DNA of 61,329 nt, filler included, from Hausera hauseri (Eukaryota): assembly GCA_046269625.1 (NCBI GenBank). It is 12 parts of 12 records of this genome, joined end to end, with 100 filler letters (N's around TTAATTAATTAA, not from the genome) between each part and the next. Parts side by side here need not be neighbours in the genome. Positions count along the whole stretch, not along the records: positions 55,119 to 61,329 come from JBJURY010125317.1; 11 more parts are not named here. One strand, 5' to 3'. The translations under genes were made by a program, and so were the position numbers. The notes under the pieces are model-generated. The model ran no database searches. It saw only the letters and a program-made list of their open reading frames with translations, and was not told where the DNA came from. Shown here piece after piece: positions 3,881 to 61,329 of this stretch (the first letter of the stretch is position 1; every line of letters begins with the position of its first letter).

Positions 3881-6458
3881 ACTATGTTTAGACATTTTTG
3901 TAGTAGTGGATAACATGATGTTAGTCTCAACTGAACTAATTGAAGAATAATTTTTAAGGGGATCAAAATCTAGTGTGTGAAATACAGGATTTCGGCACCT
4001 CCCGTTTTGTGTAATATAAAATGACGACGGGAATTTTTCAAAAAAAAAACAGTTATCGACTTTGTGACCATTTATATCCAAAAGAAAAAAACAGTGAATT
4101 GAGAAAGTGAAAGTCGAAACGTTTTGTAATAAAAAAATCATAATTCAACGCCAAGAAAAATTTTTCATCATATTTCGAAGGAAAATTTTTAGAGTCAATC
4201 AGTAATGAAGACTTTGCTCGGCAAGGTCGGCGGATCGAAATACTGAAGCTCACTTGGTTTCTTGACGCACATAATTCAAATTTAATTCTAAAGAGTTTTT
4301 AAAAAGTATTTATTTTTATCCAATATTTAAATAAAAATAATAATTTTGCTTATTATTTATTTTTGATGCTCCATTACTCAATCGAAAGTACTTCGCGTGC
4401 CATAAATAGTGCTGACATACTTTTTCACCAAAAGCAACATTTACTGTATGACGTTGGCGTTACTGTGTAAATTTTGATGTAGATTTCAAACTCTGATTTA
4501 ATTTTTCAATTATACTCCAAAAATTTGAAGTTTTAAATGGTGAACGAAGCACCGGAACTACGTTCATTTTTTATAAACGTATAATATCGGACATTTGATA
4601 AATGTCAGTTAGCAACTTGACCAATTTCATGTTTTTGTTCTAAGTGCCACTTGAGCATTGGGTGAATCTGATTATTTCAATGCACATTGCAACGAAAGAT
4701 TCACCGTATTAAATTGATAGACGAAATAGACAGTATCATTTTCTGAGTGTGTAAGATTAAGTGGTTACAATGAATATCCTTAATTAAATCAACCATGAAC
4801 AACAAAGGAATTGCCCGAAATTTTGGGGTGCCGAATTTCATCCGCATTAATGGCAAATTCGAGCACCCCACAAAAAATATCGTGATATAATGTTAGTTTT
4901 ATAGTAGTTATTTATCCAATTCATATGTGAATAAATTTGACAAATAAATATTTGAAAATCTTCGTCAGGCAATTAAAATTCCAACTCTAGCAAGAATCAT
5001 GTTTTCAATCAAGAAATCAATTAAAGCAATATGTCCGCAAATTTTCGATATATTTTGATTTTTTTGTCACGATTTGTGTATTTAAACAACAAAATCTTTA
5101 GAAAACTGCATATTAGCAAGGTCGAGTAAATCCGGCCCTTGTACTGCAAAACTCCCGGCAATTATTTGTAACATTTAGATTAACACATTTACACAACAGA
5201 TCGGCAATGGCATCGAAGACATCTTGTCTAATCAACGAGTCAGACATTGACTCTGCTTTTAAATTTAATGTTCACTTTGTTGAACTTTTCGGGTTCAGTT
5301 AACATTTTTAATGTACACATTTGCCAGTGGGAAACGAACAGATCTTGGATTTTTCTTTTGAGATAATCTTCTGGCATTCGATAAGTGATATCCAGTAAAG
5401 GTACGACATATTCCGGGAAGATAATACTTAAGAAAAGAATATTATACTTGTGAAAAACTAAGCATGAATCTAAAAGTTCGATCCACACTGTTTGATGGTA
5501 CAAACCAAGCCATAACTCAGTGGTAAAATTAATGCTCATGAAAATAAAAGAATTCGCAGCTGGGTTTGAATCCCACTTCGTACACCAGTTTATGATAGTG
5601 TTGTGAATATCCGCAGTAACGCACGAGAATGATCAGAGACAACGTAATATCCAAATAAATATAAATCCACAGCGAGAATATAATACTGTAATACTGAAAA
5701 CTAAAATTCAAGAATCAAAATGGCAAAATTAATTTTTCAAAAATGTAAATAACTTTATTGAAGGATTAAAACAAGCCACAGAATCAGCATAATTACTCTG
5801 AAAGTATCCTGACATGGAATAAAGCAGATGACGATAAACAAAAGACTGAATTACACATTCAATAACAATATTATTGTAGTTTTATCAGTAAATTCTGCGG
5901 ATATGAAAATTCGATTTATTTTAGTAGCCATTGAAAACAGGTAGAATTTGTCTGATTGTTTGTAATTTGTGTCTTACAGACAGAACTGCGAATGGTATAC
6001 GGCAATATTTGATGGAAATTCGTTGAAAATATTCGGATTGATAACGGGTCAATATCGATTGTGTTTGTTTGGTTTCCGCAATGTGTTTTGTGAGAACTTG
6101 CATTTGACCAACTAAAATTCTTCTGTGAGAATTGCCGATAGAAAAAGTAGTCATTTGAACAAGATGTCAAGAAGTATTCCACAAACATTAAAAAATCCTG
6201 TACGCAATTTGACAGTAAAAAGTACAAATCGAAGTGAAGATTGTGGTGCCGACGGCGACTGGTGCTCTTTGGCCCATTCGGTTGGGCACGGTCGGTACTC
6301 CGTTATCGCCGCGTCGGACTCATGCTTGGGTTCCGGTTTCCCGCCTCGTGGGGTTTCCGAGGTGCCGCATAAAGTCGTCGATTCAAATATAATTACAATC
6401 ATAAATATGGATTGAAAAAGTTCTGAACGTTTCTTCACTGTTATTTTCAGAAACTTCA

Positions 6459-7296: not shown

Positions 7297-8297
7297 CGAC
7301 AGAAGAAGGAAAAATTTTGAAAATGGAAACAAAATGGCGTCGGCTATGTGTGAATGGCCAATGGGCCTGTGGAGCTTGCTAAGGAAACAAAATAGTGGTT
7401 TCATTCCTTTTAGCAGTGAAGAAGGGAAAATTTTGAAAAAGGAAACAAAATGGCGGCGGCTATGTGCGAATGACTAATAGGCCTGCGGAGCTTGCTGGGG
7501 AAACAAAATGGCGGTTTCATTCCTTTTAGCAGTGAAGAAGGGAAAATTTAGAAAAAGGAAACAAAATGGCGGCGGCTCTGTGCGAATAACCAATGGGCCT
7601 GTGGAGCTTGCTGGGGAAACAAAATAGCGGTTTCACCACTTTCAGCAGTGAAGAAGGGAAAATTTTGAAAAAAGGAAACAAAATGGCGGCGGCTCTGTGC
7701 GAATAACCAATGGGCCTGCGGAGCTTGCTGGGGAAACAAAATAGCGGTTTCACCACTTTCAGCAGTGAAGAAGGGAAAATTTTGAAAAAAAGGAAACAAA
7801 ATGGCGGCGGCTCTGTGCGAATAACCAATGGGCCTGCGGAGCTTGCTGGGGAAACAAAATGGCGGTTTCACTACTTTCAGCAGTGAAGAAGGAAAAATTT
7901 TGAAAAAAAGGAAACAAAATGGCGGCGGCTCTGTGCGAATGTCTAATGGGCCTGTGGAGCTTGCTGGGGAAACAAAATGGCGGTTTCATTCCTTTTAGCA
8001 GTGACGAAGGGAAAATTTTGAAAAAGGAAACAAAATGGCGGCGGCTCTGTGCGAATGTCCAATGGGCCTGTGGAGCTTGCTGGGGAAACAAAATGATGGT
8101 TTCATTCCTTTTAGCAGTGAAGAAGGGAAAATTTTGAAAAAAGGAAACAAAATGGCGGCGGCTCTGTGCGAATGACCAATGGGCCTGCGGAGCTTGCTGG
8201 GGAAACAAAATGGCGGTTTCATTCCTTTTAGCAGTGAAGAAGGAAAAATTTTGAGAAAGGAAACAAAATGGCGGCGGCTCTATGTGAATGGCCAATG
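7297..8297. repeat. Tandem repeat, 116-118 bp unit, ~8.5 copies
   Basis: Anchor AGCAGTGA at 7412, 7528, 7644, 7761, 7879, 7997, 8113 and 8230. Each unit has GGAAACAAAAT(G/A)GCGG twice and usually a CCAAT. Confidence 0.95.
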
Positions 8298-8454: not shown

Positions 8455-9200
8455 GTGCTGGCCTGTCGTGGTAACAGGCCAGTGGTCCACCAAAGAATAG
8501 GCTTTCCTTTTGCCTTTGACATCCTTCCTAGGACTCCCAGGTTTGGGAGGGGGGGGGGTGACCCTGCTGGCCTGTCATGGGTCCATGGTAACAGGCCGCA
8601 GGTCCACCGGAGCATAGGCTTTCCTTTCCAAAAGACCCTTTGACATCCTTCCTCGGGCTCCCAGGTTTGGGGGCCTGGCATCCATGGGGGGTCTAGGGGG
8701 GTGACCCTGCTGGCCTGGTCCGGCCGCAGGTCCACCGGAACATAGGCTTTCCTTTCGAAAAGGTATGCCTTTGACATCCTTCCTCGGGCTCCCAGGTTTG
8801 GGGGGCCTGGCATCCATGGGGGGTGACCCTGCTGGCCTGTCATGGGCCCATGGTAACAGGCAGCAGGTCCACCGGAGCATAGGCTTTCCTTTCGAAAAGG
8901 TATGCCTTTGACATCCTTCCTCGGGCTCCCAGGTTTGGAGGGTCCTGGCATCCATGGGGGGTCCATCCTGCTGGCACGGGCGTCAGTCGTAGGGCTCCCA
9001 GGTTTGGGGGGGTGACCCTGCTGGCGTGTCATGGGTCCATGGTAACAGACCGCAGGTCCACCGGAGCATAGTCCTTCCTCGGGCTCCCAGGTTTGGAGGG
9101 GCCTGGCATCCATGGGGGGTCCATCCTGCTGGCACGGGCGTCATCCATGGGGGGTCCATCGACCGTCCATCCGTCCGAGGGCTCCCAGGCTTGGGAGGGC
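8455..9200. repeat. GC-rich modular tandem repeat (~120-190 bp variable units)
   Basis: Recurring modules GGTGACCCTGCTGGC, CCATGGTAACAG, GCAGGTCCACCGGAGCATAG and CTCGGGCTCCCAGGTTTGG, about 5 times each. Confidence 0.9.
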
Positions 9201-50821: not shown

Positions 50822-51552
50822 AATAGGTCAAACCTGAGACTGTGCAATAATGCTAAAAAGCTAGTTACATATGCTAGTAAGGCCCAGTTTAAAGAGAGCA
50901 TTATTATAGATAATGACTTGGTTGCTGTTCGTCTGGGTAAAGATATGGTCACCTTAGATAGATCTTCATACATTGGTCAGGCCGTACTTCATCTATCCAA
51001 TTTACGGATGTATGAGCTGAATTACATAGAGTTGGAGACATATAGGCACCAGTTTCAGTGTGAACTTAATATCGTTGCCGGTGACACAGACAGTTTTTTA
51101 TTGAATGCCGTGGTATTGATTTGAGATCGTAACTGTTACCAGCAATGATAGCTAATGAACAGCTAGATACATCGAACTATGACAAGAGTGATCAGCTATA
51201 CTCGACTTGCTTCGCAGTTGTAATTGGGAAATTTAAAGACGAAAGTAACGGCTGCGTTCAGTATGAAGAGGGGATTTTTCCACGGCTAAAATCTTATGCA
51301 CTGAAAACCCAAACCAAACCAGTCCTCAAATGTAAGGGCGTAAATCTCAAGCAGACAGACTTGCAGTTCAGTAACTACCTACAAGCATATGAAACCGGTT
51401 GTGAGACCATGGTGAACGAGGAGCAAATTGGCAGCAAAAATCACCATCTTATGACAATCAGTTCAAAGAAGAAAGCGTTGGATCCCTTTGACGACAAACG
51501 GCATTGGATTGAGAAAAACAGATCAGTTGCTTACGGACATTATTGTATTTAA
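50822..51552 (+). pseudogene. Maverick protein-primed PolB, C-terminal part
   Basis: YIGQAVL.LS..MY, DTDS, DTSNY, IGKFKDE, KSY, KCKGV, DDKR...YGHY*. Confidence 0.95.
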
Positions 51553-53383
51553 TTGTAAAAATTTCGATTTATTTGTATATGCTGTATTAATAAAAGTTTT
51601 AATCTGTATTATGTTGTTTCTGTTAGTTAGGCCTTTTAGTAAATACTTTCAATTTCTGTTATTTTCGACACTAGACACAGCATTATGTTTGAACCTACTA
51701 CTACATAATCACACATTAAGAAAACAATACACATATAAAGGTAATCGATGGGAGGAAAACATGAATGCATCTAAAAGCATTTGATCCCTAAGGTGGAAAT
51801 AGTGAAACCCTGTCTGCAGCAGAAATCCCTTTTGTTCAAAACCAAAATTTAAGTAAAGTGGGGTGGGAATAGTGAAACCACGATAAGCACAGGAAGCTAT
51901 TTTCCTATGGATGGGAATAGTGAAACCCAATCTGCCGCAGAAATCCTTTTGTTCAAAATTTAAAGAAACCGACAAATCACATTACACCAAAACCAAAATT
52001 AAGACAAAAATTTCTTTCACGCGAAATTCAAAATTTTAAACCCGACTTAAATCCATGCAGTTCTCGTGCTTGTGTGTATCCACTTTCTGATTGTGTGCCT
52101 CCAAACTCCGCCATATTAATTGTGTATTTGTGTAACGTTTTTTCTACCCCATGACTCATCCACGAACCACTTCATTTCTTCCTTCCCTGGGAGGGGAGTG
52201 GGTCTGTGCGCGTGTCCTCCCTTCCATCTACTATTTGACTAAATGTGTTTTGTTTACTTCATAATATTTTGACTAATTTTTGTTTTCTTTATGTTTTGTC
52301 GATGTAATATTTTGTAATTATGTTTTGTCAACATAATTTTTTTGATGTTTGCCGAAATATTCTATTACATCATATTACATGTGTGTGTCCTAATTTCTAC
52401 TGGCTATTATGGAGTATATAAGAACCAGTAAATATTTATTATTTCTTTCCAATGTCAAACATGCTGTGCTCCATATTCTATGGTAATTGTAGCACATTCA
52501 ATATCTGTATGGTAGGATATATCCATCATCACTGTGGTGCCACGGTCACCGGCGGCTCGGTCTCTCGTCCGGATGCTAGTTGTCAGTGTAATACTTCTGA
52601 TGTTAAGAAGCAACCGTTTCGTCCGAAATATCGATCTCAACCACTTTCCAGATGAAGAAGTTTCCACCACCATTTCTTATCAACATACACAGTACTTGCA
52701 TCCGTCTGTCAATGTTTGTGATGGCAAATTAATAGAAGGAAAATTAAGCAAGTAATGATAAAGGAATAATGAATAAAGTTGAAAGAATTTTGAATGCGTA
52801 CGGTTCATCAGTCACTGATTTACAAATATGAATTTATCCAGAGTTTAAAGAATTAACTGTGTCATCTCATACTTCTTCAATATTCCCTCCTTTAAAGTGA
52901 GAAGAATGGATTACGTCATTTCACATTTCTTCAATATTCCCTCCTTCAAAGGGAGATAATGAATAATATGATAACAATCGAAAACATTATTATCGCACAG
53001 ATTTTCCTTTTAAAATGTAGAATTGGACCTTGGATTCACTTATATTCAATTTCAAAACTGTTGAAAATACATTAGATGCTGTGAAATCAAAAGCTTTTAG
53101 GTATAAATGTCAAATCAATGTAGACACTGATGAAGTAAAATATGTGTACAGAAATATCCGATTGAAATTATATAAAGACAAAATCTGATTTCATTAAATT
53201 TTGAATGTTGTACAGAGAAATCTTTATTGGCAGAGATAAGTCGCTTTCGTTAAAAATATTGACAGATCAATAAGTGTTATTGAAAATGATTAATGTTTGT
53301 TGATTGAAGAATTTTAAATTTAAACAGAAATATAATACATTTTGTTCTTCAAGACTGGATTTATCTTGAATTTTTAACTGATT

Positions 53384-54127
53384 ATGAATACATTTAACCG
53401 TCCATCTTTGTTATTTCAACTGGAACCAAACTGGTGTCAGAATTCACACAATGACATTACCGATGATAATACTAAAAATCCTGATGAACAATGTCAGAAA
53501 GTTTACGAATGGCCGGAACAAATGCCGACACAAACAAATGTCGAAGACTTATCATACAATTGGCAAACCACCAAAACCATTATCAAAAGTCGTATATCCA
53601 TTATGTTTAATAATCAAGCTCTAGCTGATGTTTATTTACTTGTTGGTCGAACTCCAAATGTGCAAAAATTTCCATCTCATCAGTTTATATCAGCTATAAG
53701 TAGCGTAGTTTTTGATGCCATGTTGAAATTCATTTACACTGATGAAATTCATCTCGGACCGGATACGGTGATGACAACTCTATATGCTGCCAAGAAATAC
53801 TCCATTTCAGCATTGGAGAAGGCTTGCGTTGATTATTTGAAAAGGAATTTGTGCAGTGAAAATGCATTTATGCTATTAACGCAAGCAAAAATCATCACTG
53901 TTCATTTCCCGTCATTCGTTGACAACGTTCGAGCCATTTCCGAGATTAATAATACCAGTTCGACTGCAGATGAAATGACAGAAACCAAAACTACTACCGA
54001 TGTTGAAGATGAGAGCTGTGACAGTTTTAAACATAACAATTTAGAAGTGCACAAAATCGTTTCAAAGCAATTTGTATATAAATCTTCAGAACATGAAGAC
54101 AGTATAGACACTCTTGATGGACGATAA
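53384..54127 (+). CDS. BTBD1/2: BTBD1/2-derived chimeric ORF with internally deleted BTB domain
   Basis: YNWQTTK...FNN..LADV...VFDAM|LKFIYTDEI.LGPDTVMTTLYAAKKY...NAFMLLTQA. About 25 aa are missing after FDAM, and the sequence after LLTQAK is unrelated. Confidence 0.8.
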   Translation: MNTFNRPSLLFQLEPNWCQNSHNDITDDNTKNPDEQCQKVYEWPEQMPTQTNVEDLSYNWQTTKTIIKSRISIMFNNQALADVYLLVGRTPNVQKFPSHQFISAISSVVFDAMLKFIYTDEIHLGPDTVMTTLYAAKKYSISALEKACVDYLKRNLCSENAFMLLTQAKIITVHFPSFVDNVRAISEINNTSSTADEMTETKTTTDVEDESCDSFKHNNLEVHKIVSKQFVYKSSEHEDSIDTLDGR

Positions 54128-55118: not shown

Positions 55119-55720
55119 GTAGAAGATTTCTTTTTATAGTTTCCGCGTCTCGTTTGTCACTGAGGCATATTTCTCTTCTCATCTCTCTATTGTTACAACA
55201 TTGAACAATAGTTCCTCTTTCAGAGCCTCGCGTGAAAAATTGTGCTTCATGACTTTATCCAAAAATTTCTCGATTGCCTCGAAGTAAGCCTTCGGTTCCG
55301 ATCCATTGATTTTGTACTCGAGTACTTCTTTCATATCTTCACACAGGGTTGAGGATCGGGTGAAAGCCTTCCGTAGTCTGTTTTGATATCCAGTTATCTT
55401 CGCATCTACTGCCTCGTATCTTTCTCTTGTGCTTCTTCCTCCAAGAGGCATTCAACCATGATTTCCCGCTTCGCAGCCGGTGTGTTCATATATATGAAGA
55501 ATTTTTCAAATGCTTTAATGAACTTCTCCACGTCGTCTCCTTTCCTGAATTTGTTGGGCAACAATTGATTCGCGAAAATGTCCATTGTGGCTAGAGTCGC
55601 TATGTTGGCAGCGTGCGAATCCACGCCGTCCACGTCATCGCCCAGTTTGGGTGGGGTTGGAAAATCCCCACCCCCTGGTATGTCTGCTGAATCAAAATAG
55701 GATCGTTTGAAATTACTCAT
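55119..55720 (-). mobile_element. LTR retrotransposon gag remnant (distinct from the Ubl-gag family)
   Basis: LPNKFRKGDDVEKFIKAFEKFF...LLEEEAQERYE fits the gag PxxFxGxxDxxxFxxxFE pattern; one frameshift. Confidence 0.6.
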
Positions 55721-56049
55721 TAAAAAGTAAACACCAGTTGTAGAAAAATTTTATTGTAATCCAAAATACTTATTTGGAAACAAAAATTCTAAATTCAAAT
55801 CTTACTTTTAATCAAATTACACTTTTAAATTAAATTTTTTAAAATTTAAAATGTTTCTAATTTAAATTTAGAATTTCTGTTCTCGATTATATCCTCACAC
55901 ATCATTTCTGTTGTAGATATGTCTGTGCCTTTGTTTGAGGCGTTTAATGGATGTGTTTATGCATGACTTAGACAGTACATATATAAACTTCCGCAGTAAG
56001 TGCTAGATTAACAGCTTTTTGTTTGCCAGTTTTATCTCTTCGCTACACA

Positions 56050-57030
56050 ATGCCTCAACCTCAATAAGCACCAGCTGTTCGAAAGCGGATTATTGCACTA
56101 AGCACCCACACCACCAAATCACACTACCAAATTGCTCGAGATCTTAGTTTAACAAACAATTCTGTTTTCAGAATCATCAAACTCTACAAAGAAGTAGGTT
56201 CCACCGCTCCTGGTCTTCATTCAGGTAGACCCAGGTCATCACACCAACCACCGACAGGGTATTCTGTCGTGAAGTGGTACGCAAGCCGTTTATATCTGCT
56301 ACTAAACTGAAGCGTGCCCTCATTCATCTTCTGGATAGAGTTTCTATTAGGACGGTGCAACATTGACTGCAGAAGATGAGCATGCCTTCCCTTAAACCAG
56401 CCAAAAAGCCCCTCATCATTGCAAAGATGTGGCAGAGTCGCCTTCATTTCTGCCGCGAACATCAGCACTAAACAGTTAATGACTAAAAGAAGGTGCTCTT
56501 CAGTGACGAAAGCACTTTCAAGCAACAGGATTGCCTTCCCAAACTCATTGGCTGGACTCCAGGTGCATCTCCACTCGATCTTCGGTATACTGGCAAGACT
56601 GTCAAGCACTCTCCGAGAGTCATGGTGTGGGGATGCTTTGAGTCTCAAGGAGGAGGCGCTCTCATTTCTGGAAAAAGGTAAAAAAAATGAACAACGAGAC
56701 CTACATCGCCATCCTGGAAAGAAAGTTAAACATATCCATGCAGGTGCGGGGTTATAAGACAAAGCACCTTGCCACACCTAAAAACGAACCATGGACTGGT
56801 TTAGAGACAACGGCGTGACGGTACTGTCCTGGCCTGGCAGCAGCCTTGACCTCAACCCTATCGAAAACCTGTGGTCGCAGGTCAAAGTCAAAATTGACTA
56901 CAAGTGCAAGTTTCTTGAGGCGCTCAGACAGGAAGCAAGGCGGGTGTGGTCTCGGGAAACCAGTCTGGAGGAATGTACAAGGATGGTGGAGCTCATCGAG
57001 GATATCGCATCAAATACTAGATGGCTGATG
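56050..57030 (+). mobile_element. Tc1-like transposase remnant
   Basis: SGRPR, KPAKKP, VLFSDESTF, VMVWGCF, DKAPCH, WPGSSLDLNPIENLW, with stops and frameshifts. Confidence 0.93.
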
Positions 57031-57789
57031 CGTTTTTATGATTATACAAGCACTGTACATACATATTTTCATGTAAAAACACATTTTCTGCTAAAGTGAA
57101 TGTGAAAACTGTGAACCAAAGAAGTCAGAAAGCAAAAAGTCAAATATTATTAAATTTGATAAAAGAAACTATCGAAGAAAAGGAAAACACTGCCAAATGA
57201 TACTAATGTCAATAAGACGGCAAAGCAAATAATCAACCAATGATACCTAAATCTTAAAGTGCTCCCGCAAAAGCCGTTTCGTATCACTAGGATTTTGTAC
57301 AGAAAAAGACGTCGTTAATGGATCATGAAAGATTTCATAGTCATTTCCTCCCTGGATCCAAAAAATAGACTATGGGCAATTTAATACAACTACTTCAAAC
57401 GTCTTATCCCCATAAAAACGAATACTTTCAAATTCATCTTTGATATGTCGTAAACAATACGTTTTATTCCATCCGACGGGAAATACGTCAAAACTAATCT
57501 GACCACCTGATAAAACCACCGACATTTCTTTTACCAAAATCAAATAAAATTATTTACCAACGGCAAATGACAATCCGAGATGTCCGAATGTTTCTTTTAA
57601 ATGATCGATCATCGTTTTACGAATATGATTTTTCTGAATGAAAATCGTTTTTCCACAAATTGCAAAAACTGAAACGGAAATCTAGCTCCAAAATACTATC
57701 CTGTCGACAGTAAACCATCGTATTTTCCAAGTCAAACCTCACGTGGTGTGGCTAAGATCTCGCGAAAAAAGTTTGTGGAATTGAAAGAG

Positions 57790-58149: not shown

Positions 58150-58290
58150 TCATAAACTGTTTACGTGTATTACTGTATGTGTGGTAATGTGCCTGTTGTT
58201 AAAAAAGAAAAGGAGATAAGAGGAGGTGGTATGTCCGGGGGCATGTCATGGGGCGGCAACGAACAGCGCCGTCTGACCCAATGGTGCAGA
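58150..58290 (-). repeat. 5' fragment of the Ubl-gag element
   Basis: Nearly identical to 59600-59703 and similar to 60530-60650. Confidence 0.85.
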
Positions 58291-58796
58291 GAGATCGAGT
58301 GAGGAGGGAGATCGGGGCGCGACTATTCGCCCGACGCGGAGTCGGCGGACGTCCGGCCGTGTCCAACCAAATGGGCCAAAGGGCACCTGCCGCTGTGGGT
58401 ACCCCATCGATTATACTTTGATCATTAAATACAATCATAATAGATTATTTGAATCAGTGGGTCATGATTAGTAAATTTGGCAAAATATTTTTACAAAAGA
58501 TTGTTATTTTAATTTTCGATATATTGTTTTGTTGATGTTCTGCCGAAATAAAAGTATCCATCGAATACAGTTCGTGTTTATTACATTCTTGAAAAAATCT
58601 CCGAATAGGACATAAACGGTGTAGTTGCGACATCTGATATTTTGTGAAAAATCCATTTATATTAACTAATAAAATTTTCTATCATAAAATCCCGATTATC
58701 GTCTCTGAGAATATATCCATAAATGAAAAATCAGTTGAACGAAAATTTCCAAAATGGAGATGACGTTTCTGTACTTCACAAATTAAAATTCAAGAT

Positions 58797-59703
58797 GCAA
58801 TGTGTTGTTGGTCTGTTGTTAATGCCGCAGAGCTAGTGCTGTGTGTGAGTGCAGTACTTCATATGCTTAGTCCGCCAGTTCGGCTAGCTTGTCCAGAGCC
58901 GTGGAGTCTTCGACCACGGTAAGCAAAGCTCTTATTTGAAGGGGCAATGCATTTAAAAGTAGCGACGAATAAGTTCTGGACTATACTCAGATGTTACGCC
59001 AAGGGTGTTGAGGTGAGACAAGGATGAGTGTAAGAATTCAGAAGGCTTCTGAAGGTCCATGGCGTTATCGTTGAAGAACCTTTGAATAATTGAATCGATT
59101 GAAGGTTCAGTAAGCTTGAGAACGGCATTGTAAAGTTGAGTATATGGGTCGGTGTGATGAAGGATATCGATGATATTGGTAATTTTAGTTTTGATGGAAG
59201 CTGGTAAATGGAAAAAGAGGCTGTTGGCTTTGGATAGAGTCGACGACGTTTTGTGATTGGAGACAGAATTGGTGCAGTTTTAGCCAAGTTTGAGTAGAGT
59301 TTTGGCTGTCGAGGAAGTATTCGGTGTGGGGTGAATGAGTGAGGAGGGTGTTTTGTGTAGAATTGTTTGAAGCAGTTTGGGAAAGTGAATGATAGAAATC
59401 TGTGGTTTGGTGAGTTTGTCCGTGTTATCAATTGTGGGTGATGAATGCATGCCACCACGGATACGGAAGTGAATGTGAAGACAGATGTGGGTTTAGGAAC
59501 ATTGTAGAGTTCCAGCGAGGGGTATTAGATATCCATTATGTGTGATATAGAAGTTAGAGGAGTGAAGAGAAGTGGAGATGATTTTATTGATGGTAGCTGT
59601 GTTTACATGTATTACTGTATGTGTGCTAATGTGCCTGTTGTTAAAAAAGAAAAGGAGATAAGAGGAGGTGGTATGTCCGGGGGCATGTCATGGGGCGGCA
59701 ACG
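58797..59703 (-). mobile_element. Ubiquitin-like + Gypsy gag element, copy B
   Basis: SNFYITHNGYLIP...CLHIHFRIRGG|M (RIRGGM at 59448-59465), then TWLKLHQF...DPYTQLYNAVL...KPSEFL...ALPLQIR...LDKLAELAD. Confidence 0.8.
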
Positions 59704-59803
59704 NNNNNNNNNNNNNNNNNNNNNNNNNNNNNNNNNNNNNNNNNNNNNNNNNNNNNNNNNNNNNNNNNNNNNNNNNNNNNNNNNNNNNNNNNNNNNNNNN
59801 NNN

Positions 59804-60715
59804 GGCTAGCTTGTCCAGAGCCGTGGAGTCTTCGACCACGGTAAGCAAAGCTCTTATTTGAAGGGGCAATGCATTTAAAAAATAGCGACGTATAAGTTCT
59901 GGACTATGCTCAAATGTTACGCCAAGGGCGTTGAGGTGAGACAAGGATGTGCGTAAAAATTCAGAAGGCTTCTGAAGGCCCATGGCGTTATCTTTGAAGA
60001 ACCTTTGAATGATTGAATCGATTGAAGGCCAAGTGAGCTTGAGAACGGCATTGTAAAGTTGAGCATGTGTCGGTGTGATGAAGGATATCTATGATATTGG
60101 TAATTTTAGTTTTGATGGAAGCTGGTAAATAAAAAAAGTCTGTTGGCTTTGGATAAAGAGTCGACGACGTTTTGTGATTAGAACCAGAACTGATGCAGTT
60201 TTAGCCAAGTTTTAGTAGAGTTTTGGCTGTCGCGGAAGTATTCTGTGCAAGGTGAATGAGTGGGAGTGTGTGTTGTGTAAAAGTGTTTGAAGCACTTTGT
60301 TTCGGTAAGTAAGTGATAGAGATCTGTGGTTTGGTGGGTTTGTCCGTGGTATCAATTGTGTGTGATAAATCCATGCCACCACGGATACGGTAGTGAATGT
60401 GAAGGCAGACACAAGTTGTAGCAGGTTGGAAAAGTCCAGCGAATGGCGCTACGGATTCATTGTGTGAGATAAAAGTTAGAGGAGTGAAGTCAGATAGAGG
60501 TGAAGTTGTAAATAGCCGCAATGTGTAAGTGTAATACTGTATATGTATAAATGTGTTTGTAATTTAAAGAAAGGAAAATGAAGTACAGAGGTGCTATGTA
60601 AGGGGGCATGTTGTGGGGCGGCAACGAAAGGTGCCGTCTGACCCAATGGCGCAGGGTGGGCGGCCGGGACCTCAGCCTAGCTGCGGCGGGTCTCAAATTT
60701 CGGGGTAACCGAGTG
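59804..60715 (-). mobile_element. Ubiquitin-like + Gypsy gag element, copy C
   Basis: MPPYIAPLYFIFLSLNYKHIYTYTVLH...CLHIHYRIRGG|M (RIRGGM at 60372-60389), then MGLQKPSEFLR...FLNALPLQIRALL. Confidence 0.8.
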
Positions 60716-60759
60716 CTTCTCTTGCGGTATGATGAAATGCACCGGTGACGGAGTAACAA

Positions 60760-61329
60760 GTGGAGATGGATCACATTCTATATGCAGCATTTTTTTGCAT
60801 TTACAACAACGACAGCTAGGCCATTTGCAGGTACTATTGCCATGGTAATGATGCAGCAACGCCAGGCGCGGTCACATACGGAAGAAATAGAGTGACCTCT
60901 TCGCCGGGTTTGAGCACAACAGTCATATAACGTGTAGTTATTATGCCTACAGAAATTTGAGTCAGCAACTGAAACTGTAGAAACGTTTGGTTTTGGCGAG
61001 AAACCACAATCGTTACAGACACAAAGTGAATCACATTTCCATTCATTTTTAGGAATTGCAGCCATTGGAGGTTGTAAACGACATGTGTGAAAACCTTTGT
61101 CGCATATATCACATATGAGCATTTTTCCTCATATTTGCTTTCGCTGCATACAAGGCAAGTTTTACATTCGGCACACTGCCACTCAGCACACACAGTAGGG
61201 TTGATTATGAGTGGTGGTTCAAGACAGTTACTGTATTAGTGTTGATCACAGCTTGTACAATAAATAAGATCATTAATGTCTCCTTTTCGCTCACATAAAG
61301 AACACATACAATGTTCATTTGAAGAATCC
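60760..61329 (-). pseudogene. KMT2C/D: KMT2C/KMT2D (MLL3/4, Lpt-like) PHD-finger cluster
   Basis: CTSCDQH*YSNCL...WQCAECKTC..C...KMLICDICDKGFHT..LQP..WKC...CNDCG...CKKMLHIECD follows the MLL3 PHD motif order. One stop, frameshifts, no introns. Confidence 0.82.

Follow-up and report, generated by a model that had tools for sequence, protein, structure and literature searches.

LTR retrotransposons normally process Gag with a protease of their own, and it is regarded as rare for them to have further domains fixed (PMC9289625). Within Ty3/Gypsy, the CsRn1 clade comprises CsRn1, PwRn1, Boudicca and AgCR (PMC2582038). In BVDV ubiquitin-like inserts have repeatedly been gained ahead of NS3 (PMC13517609), and host deubiquitinases (DUBs) cleave divergent ubiquitin-like (Ubl) fusions such as SDE2 (10.1101/2025.05.23.655772). 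For giant transposons the accessible text lists MATH, BIR and OTU domains and no ubiquitin junction (PMC6431247). A natural Ub/Ubl-Gag fusion in a retrotransposon was not found in searches of the open literature. An earlier inspection of the DNA analysed here, hereafter the sequence-only reading, had likewise known of no Gypsy family with a Ubl-Gag layout. Here we describe element copies that we read, with a probability of about 0.72, as decayed members of a Ty3/Gypsy clade in which Gag stands behind a Ubl ending in Gly-Gly (GG) in one frame and in which host deubiquitinases likely cut after GG.

The analysed window, i.e. the whole stretch of 61,329 nt from Hausera hauseri (GCA_046269625.1), consists of contigs joined end to end by N-linkers, with the last contig extending from 55,119 to the end. 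It contains three broken element copies (A, B and C) and one 5' fragment (A0), all on the - strand. Copy A (58797-59703) and copy B (59804-60777) are parted by a 100-N scaffold gap (59704-59803), and copy C (40904-41869) lies on a separate contig. The sequence-only reading, from which copy C and fragment A0 were missing, had taken A and B for tandem copies. Given this gap, and a window assembled from contigs strung together, a tandem array is unproven. Since A and B are only 84% identical, they are also not alleles of one place.

Read along the - strand, copy A begins with the end of a leader (59661-59703), which is truncated by the gap and carries one stop in the Ubl frame. It is followed by the Ubl domain (59451-59660), a predicted beta-grasp with a structural match to ISG15, which has one in-frame stop and ends in RIRGG (GG at 59451-59456). 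The gag part (58797-59450) comprises linker and capsid region and matches the database protein P0009 (35% identity over 258 columns, E 2e-39); it is frameshifted and stops short of the zinc knuckles, with no pol after it. Copy B has a longer leader (60586-60777), a Ubl domain split over two frames with one stop (60375-60585), which again ends in RIRGG (GG at 60375-60380), and a gag part of linker and capsid (59804-60374) that is frameshifted and truncated by the gap. The Ubl domain of copy C (41656-41869) contains one frameshift and its tail reads RGD. From the first gag residues on through the capsid copy C keeps a single frame with stops; its gag part (40904-41655), with capsid and coiled coil, ends at the contig end. 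Fragment A0 (58158-58406) consists of a GC-rich leader and the first ~20 Ubl codons and is 98% identical to copy A over 104 nt. Identity between the copies was 85-92% in gag and just 57-71% in the Ubl, where the nucleotide comparison of copy C with A and B gave 57-58%.

The motif LHIH[FY]RIRGG|M, which the sequence-only reading had reported for two copies, was located at 59448-59465 in A and at 60372-60389 in B, both on the - strand. This motif class occurs twice in the window, compared to a mean of 0.03 (maximum 1) over 100 shuffles. In both copies the end of the Ubl, GG and the first gag residues share one frame. The gag motifs that had been noted downstream are present as well, with a weak Pfam match of the gag pieces to DUF7041 (E 0.014 and 0.086, below the cut-off), and the Ubl pieces of the window gave no Pfam match. 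Stops or frameshifts were found in every copy, as had been stated before, and none of the window copies encodes an intact Ubl-Gag protein any more.

No pol was found in any copy of the window, nor any clear LTR. A PBS-like site lies directly after CA-T in copy B (60634-60645, a putative PBS) and in A0 (58269-58280). Going upstream, B and A0 lose their resemblance within ~30 nt, and no tRNA gene was found in the window. An interpretation of A0 as a canonical 3' LTR was rejected, given that no PBS lies past its end and no target-site duplication was visible by eye. Elsewhere in the window, a GC-rich stretch of ~127 nt (6243-6369, + strand) is 76% identical over 76 nt to the A0 leader and has imperfect TG...CA inverted ends; it is possibly a solo LTR or a small repeat.

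The search for relatives was a full HMMER scan of 1.84 billion proteins with a profile built on the pieces in the window; it provided 61 matches. P0008 and P0009 (E 5e-55 and 2e-54) are matched along the entire stretch from Ubl through Gag. In a Gag tree of 58 rows, from which P0016 (a repeat artefact) and P0011, P0040 and P0058 (too short) were left out, copy C falls inside a clade of 41 rows (support 99/96), where P0008 and P0009 are closest to it. The clade thus consists of 40 database proteins and copy C; 34 of the 40 proteins reach the Ubl-Gag junction, while six begin at or after it. All 34 carry GG at the junction, and 33 have L or I at P4, as scored by pattern with five proteins assigned by hand. 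The residue after GG is S in 15 proteins, M in 4, N in 4, G in 3, T in 2, A in 2, and D, Q, V and K in one each, and in none of them P. Proline after GG blocks cleavage. In an alignment of 36 rows G69 and G70 are invariant, with Ubl rows that are 8-24% identical to copy A; the surface of the Ubl varies freely across the clade while GG does not. Gags that fall outside the clade, 17 in number, as a rule begin near the capsid and have no xxGG tail, noting that gene calls may omit an upstream frame. They carry a single zinc knuckle, whereas the CHCC knuckle is doubled in clade members where complete, and the tree places the clade beside single-knuckle DUF7041 Gags. The Ubl-Gag fusion is real and clade-wide.

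All 20 relative clusters that were looked up derive from ENA, JGI/IMG or Logan and none from NCBI or UniRef, which may explain why the layout went unnoticed. A word-seeded protein search returned nothing for the copy C gag or the window-piece profile, and with the clade alignment it returned just two proteins, both already known. For the window's own subfamily no relatives were obtained from viral contigs, from prokaryote genomes or in a first pass over metagenomes.

We characterized the Ubl fold using an AlphaFold2 (AF2) model of copy A, built with 35 relatives; the alignments included near-canonical ubiquitin rows, which possibly aided the models. The model has the order strand-strand-helix-strand-strand-strand at a pLDDT of 74. 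It superimposes on ISG15 with Z 10.5 and an rmsd of 1.7 Å over 69 residues, and it matches ISG15, ubiquitin and SUMO with TM values of 0.72-0.77 depending on the target (E ~7e-3). The Ubl of the database protein P0010 is likewise modelled as a beta-grasp (TM 0.83, rmsd 2.4, Z 12.0). The beta-grasp that had been expected for the first ~80 residues is thus borne out by the copy A model, and the Ubl is predicted to adopt this fold. Behind the Ubl, the P0010 model shows two domains that are confidently predicted as helical; a coiled coil and a pair of knuckles follow. DUF7041 matches were obtained as well. The fold searches, dominated by ubiquitin rows with one weak metavirus ORF1 row (E 4.4e-3), gave no confirmation of a retroviral-type capsid. 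A Gag-only profile gave no capsid match against solved structures, which is no evidence of absence. Searching PDB sequences with the window Ubl pieces retrieved SDE2 weakly (E 2.3) or nothing. Descent from SDE2 in particular was rejected; the near-canonical members point to ubiquitin itself.

Pfam scores for ubiquitin (PF00240) range across the clade from 86 bits down to none, with E ≤ 0.001 in 7 of 32 proteins; P0045, P0065 and the loci L001, L003 and L004 carry near-canonical ubiquitin at 68-86 bits. These sequences, together with L010, are nested among sisters whose Ubls have diverged, as if ubiquitin of the host had been captured anew at this junction.

Selection on the Ubl was assessed from dN/dS, with pairs that are not independent of each other. 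Values were 0.16-0.44 for the Ubl, where 10 of 12 pairs could be computed; gag gave 0.05-0.15, and the leader, for which alignments of 20-27% identity make the estimate unreliable, gave 0.23-0.82. By these ratios the Ubl fold is under purifying selection and the leader weakly constrained. In two of five pairs (A-B, p 0.003; L001-L004, p 0.0003) synonymous divergence was not the same for Ubl and gag, a hint that the 5' module may have been exchanged; the other three pairs gave no sign of it.

Purifying selection on the fold would also be expected if the Ubl stayed attached as a folded N-terminal Gag domain, serving as matrix substitute, in trafficking or in proteasome/ESCRT contact, with GG as a relic. 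Such a role would fit the many Ubls that are too diverged for Pfam, and engineered Ub-Gag fusions are reported to change the fate of retroviral Gag. We consider it unlikely, since GG is invariant though the surface varies freely, and since an attached leader that varies and can reach several hundred residues would presumably burden capsid assembly. Uncleaved UBL domains such as those of Rad23 and Dsk2 are without a GG end, which counts against a permanently attached domain as well. Alternatively, the cut may occur but the selected product would be the leader-Ubl with its free GG, which might modify other proteins or divert the ubiquitin enzymes of the host. A cut would indeed expose LxGG, one subclade has kept a near-canonical ubiquitin, and FUBI is reported to be conjugated. 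The wide variation of the Ubl surface with dN/dS of up to 0.44 is however a poor fit to recognition by E1 and E2 enzymes, and makes this explanation improbable.

The anatomy of the elements was obtained from 19 metagenome contigs of one sister subclade (query A9), which is not the window's own subfamily. Because these contigs are collapsed, neither paired LTRs nor target-site duplications were visible in them. LTR and pol, which the sequence-only reading had proposed to look for, were found in these relatives and not in the window. The order of features is a purine tract, TGT, the PBS, Ubl-GG-Gag and pol. A purine tract followed by TGT was seen in 10 of the 19 loci. The PBS TGGTGTCAGAAG, which we take to be of tRNA-Leu type, was present in 13 loci at 340-685 nt past TGT, while a tRNA-Trp-type PBS pattern was matched nowhere ahead of the Ubl in 17 loci. 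According to motifs pol has the order PR-RT-RH-IN, and in L004 and L010 Pfam recovered RVT_1, RT_RNaseH, Integrase_H2C2 and rve in this order. At all 13 junctions examined an A-AAA-AAC run precedes pol, which lies in the -1 frame. The CHCC knuckle has the form CX2HX9CX3C and is mostly doubled in the relatives; the window copies end before it.

Of the 19 loci 17 cover the Ubl-Gag junction, with GG in every case. In 14 of these one uninterrupted frame runs from the Ubl into the capsid, and the other three have a stop or shift further down. The single open Ubl-Gag frame that the sequence-only reading had proposed to test for is thus present in intact relatives. That the arrangement is a chance motif or an artefact of gene prediction or assembly has a negligible probability: although the window copies are broken and below the Pfam cut-off, and some of the database proteins may be spliced gene models, the idea is refuted by the contiguous DNA frames in 14 loci together with the clade-wide GG, and the shuffle control also speaks against it.

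The frame also extends upstream of the Ubl. For 9 of the 11 loci with a PBS upstream of the Ubl it begins at an ATG that precedes the PBS and stays open through the PBS into the Ubl; the exceptions, L010 and L017, are shifted. In the nine loci the open stretch is 135-500 nt long with an AT content of 68-81% and is free of stops (shuffle P 0-0.033 each), while the other frames have stops in most loci. Six of the nine loci show the LTR start, and in all six the ATG lies between LTR start and PBS. In Ty1 the gag frame begins in the LTR, which resembles the start of the frame in these loci. Short direct repeats were seen in the LTR/leader of three loci (L003:1306-1473, L005:2315-2488 and L014:67-637), where the frame stays open if they overlap ORF1.

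The sequence-only reading had instead pointed to the ATGs 59686 and 60609, ~79 codons before the end of the Ubl. These are not the conserved start: ATG 59686 lies in the leader end of copy A off the Ubl frame, with an ACG at the same place in copy C, and ATG 60609 in the leader of copy B is in the Ubl frame only because B is shifted by one base with respect to A and C. The 30 residues before the Ubl of P0009 match A0 in the Ubl frame at 11 of 30 positions (ungapped, score 55; other frames at most 8), such that the conserved frame runs further upstream than the ATG. Against copy B, the matching frame of the P0009 leader differs from the Ubl frame of B. The idea of a captured Ubl as leader of Gag is hence retained insofar as a Ubl is fused ahead of Gag; an N-terminal, Met-initiated Ubl is not, as it is internal in a longer frame. 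By its frame structure, the Ubl is an internal junction and not an ATG-started leader. Its position within a longer frame starting in the LTR of the relatives makes it better read as a cleavable junction.

The position of the start also bears on the possibility that the Ubl sets the dose of Gag, by way of expression, folding or an N-degron, rather than uncoupling it from the leader, with translation often starting at a Met near the Ubl. L004 does have a Met at the Ubl start, and the residue after GG is S, M, G, T, A or V in 27 of the 34 proteins, all of which are stabilising by the N-end rule. The frame that is open from PBS to Ubl in most loci while other frames mostly have stops, and several leaders that are without any Met between PBS and Ubl (L008, L009), leave this explanation little probability.

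For the preferred reading, in which the Ubl is a junction cut by the host, we propose the following scheme. A Ubl would have been captured from a host ubiquitin mRNA. Translation would start in the LTR and yield a leader-Ubl-Gag protein, whose leader may matter mainly as an open frame. A host DUB would then cut after GG, and Gag would begin at one fixed residue regardless of the sequence ahead of it, so that the Ubl would act as a host-cleaved junction comparable to the ubiquitin insertions in cytopathic BVDV and to the UBL of SDE2. From time to time the 5' module would be swapped by template switching. As the majority of Ubls differ strongly from ubiquitin, recognition by host DUBs is an assumption of this scheme.

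Fragments of host genes were found next to two of the copies. A broken KMT2C/D-like PHD-finger gene piece (60770-61329; best match MLL3, E 4.9e-11) adjoins the leader of copy B, and a broken SETDB1-like 5' piece (42584-43378; E 2.4e-18), reaching to the Tudor domains, lies ~700 nt upstream of copy C in its Ubl frame. Both are on the - strand, i.e. the strand of the element, and would be part of it only if the element carries cargo. Over 123 aligned SETDB1 codons no gap of intron size was seen. These pieces hint that host-gene cargo may have been captured. Among the 34 junction-covering proteins, which are predictions and may be spliced gene models joining neighbours, at least 6 have host pieces before the Ubl (DIS3L+CNOT1, Arp8, 5'-nucleotidase, H2A, SCC3/SA and Hsp90); P0060 looks spliced when compared by eye to P0055. 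In the 11 ORF1 leaders obtained from contigs no host-domain match was found. In a gene-dense genome, moreover, element and host genes are likely to be adjacent by themselves, which argues against cargo. We regard it as possible but doubtful that the Ubl junction is a cargo-uncoupling device, by which pieces of host mRNAs would be captured, shuffled and expressed as Ubl-tagged peptides while the element stays mobile. If Gag is freed at GG by host enzymes, nearly any in-frame LTR/leader sequence would be tolerable; such uncoupling, if true, would explain in-frame host gene pieces without loss of Gag.

The window holds further features. A BTB/POZ gene piece (53378-54127, + strand; Pfam E 9.5e-12, half a domain) seems internally deleted and truncated and is possibly a stray host-gene fragment. 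The 3' end of a phosphomannomutase gene (57250-57640, - strand; Pfam PMM E 1.5e-27) with two introns of ~40-55 nt lies ~500 nt downstream of A0. In addition there are a decayed Tc1/mariner-type transposase (56050-57100, + strand) with HTH_Tnp_Tc3_2 and DDE_3, and, at the end of the contig, another frame that looks gag-like by eye (55121-55750, - strand) but is unrelated to the first and has no significant Pfam match. Decayed DNA-polymerase-B-like pieces at 43900-46534 (- strand) and 50774-51552 (+ strand), without Pfam match, are presumably of Polinton/Maverick type. Taken together, the short phosphomannomutase introns, the SETDB1-like, KMT2C/D-like and BTB pieces and the Tc1-like transposase point to a probable animal host whose genome is compact. 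Tandem arrays of 116-nt units (8.5 copies) and of ~137-nt GC-rich units occupy 7302-8297 and 8469-9198, respectively.

By retaining a ubiquitin-type cleavage site before Gag, such a clade would pass Gag maturation to host deubiquitinases. The host would thereby gain a control point over Gag, and what occurs sporadically among pestivirus mutants would here have become fixed. The Ubls, which exist in dozens of natural versions ranging from almost ubiquitin to beyond recognition, may furthermore serve as a resource for mapping what DUBs need.

Among described retroelements the CsRn1 clade is similar in its CHCC knuckle CX2HX9CX3C, a helical DUF7041-type Gag, a gag/pol overlap with -1 frameshift and the order PR-RT-RH-IN (PMC2582038). 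It differs in having one knuckle instead of two, no described Ubl-GG before the capsid, and a tRNA-Trp PBS, whereas here the PBS is TGGTGTCAGAAG and ORF1 starts upstream of it. As the tRNA-Trp PBS is absent, and as the placement was made by a Gag tree, we file the elements as Ty3/Gypsy near CsRn1 and not within it. LTR-mediated retroposition resembles the present case in that pieces of host mRNAs, sometimes of several genes, are taken up in frame via template switching; the accessible account mentions no cleavable junction (PMC5131818). Like the 2A-like peptides of non-LTR retrotransposons (PMC3708506), the Ubl would separate an upstream peptide from a retroelement protein, but by host proteolysis in an LTR element rather than by ribosome skipping. 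SDE2 and FUBI-eS30/UBA52 share with it a divergent UBL ending in GG, which in their case is removed by a host DUB (10.1101/2025.05.23.655772; PMC8354635); theirs is an N-terminal UBL in host genes, whereas the one described here is internal and mobile. A further parallel is found with cytopathic BVDV, in which a captured Ub/Ubl lies in frame inside a polyprotein ahead of a protein that needs release and has been gained repeatedly (PMC13517609). There, the insertions are sporadic events in an RNA virus, while here the junction is fixed and under purifying selection in a whole retroelement clade.
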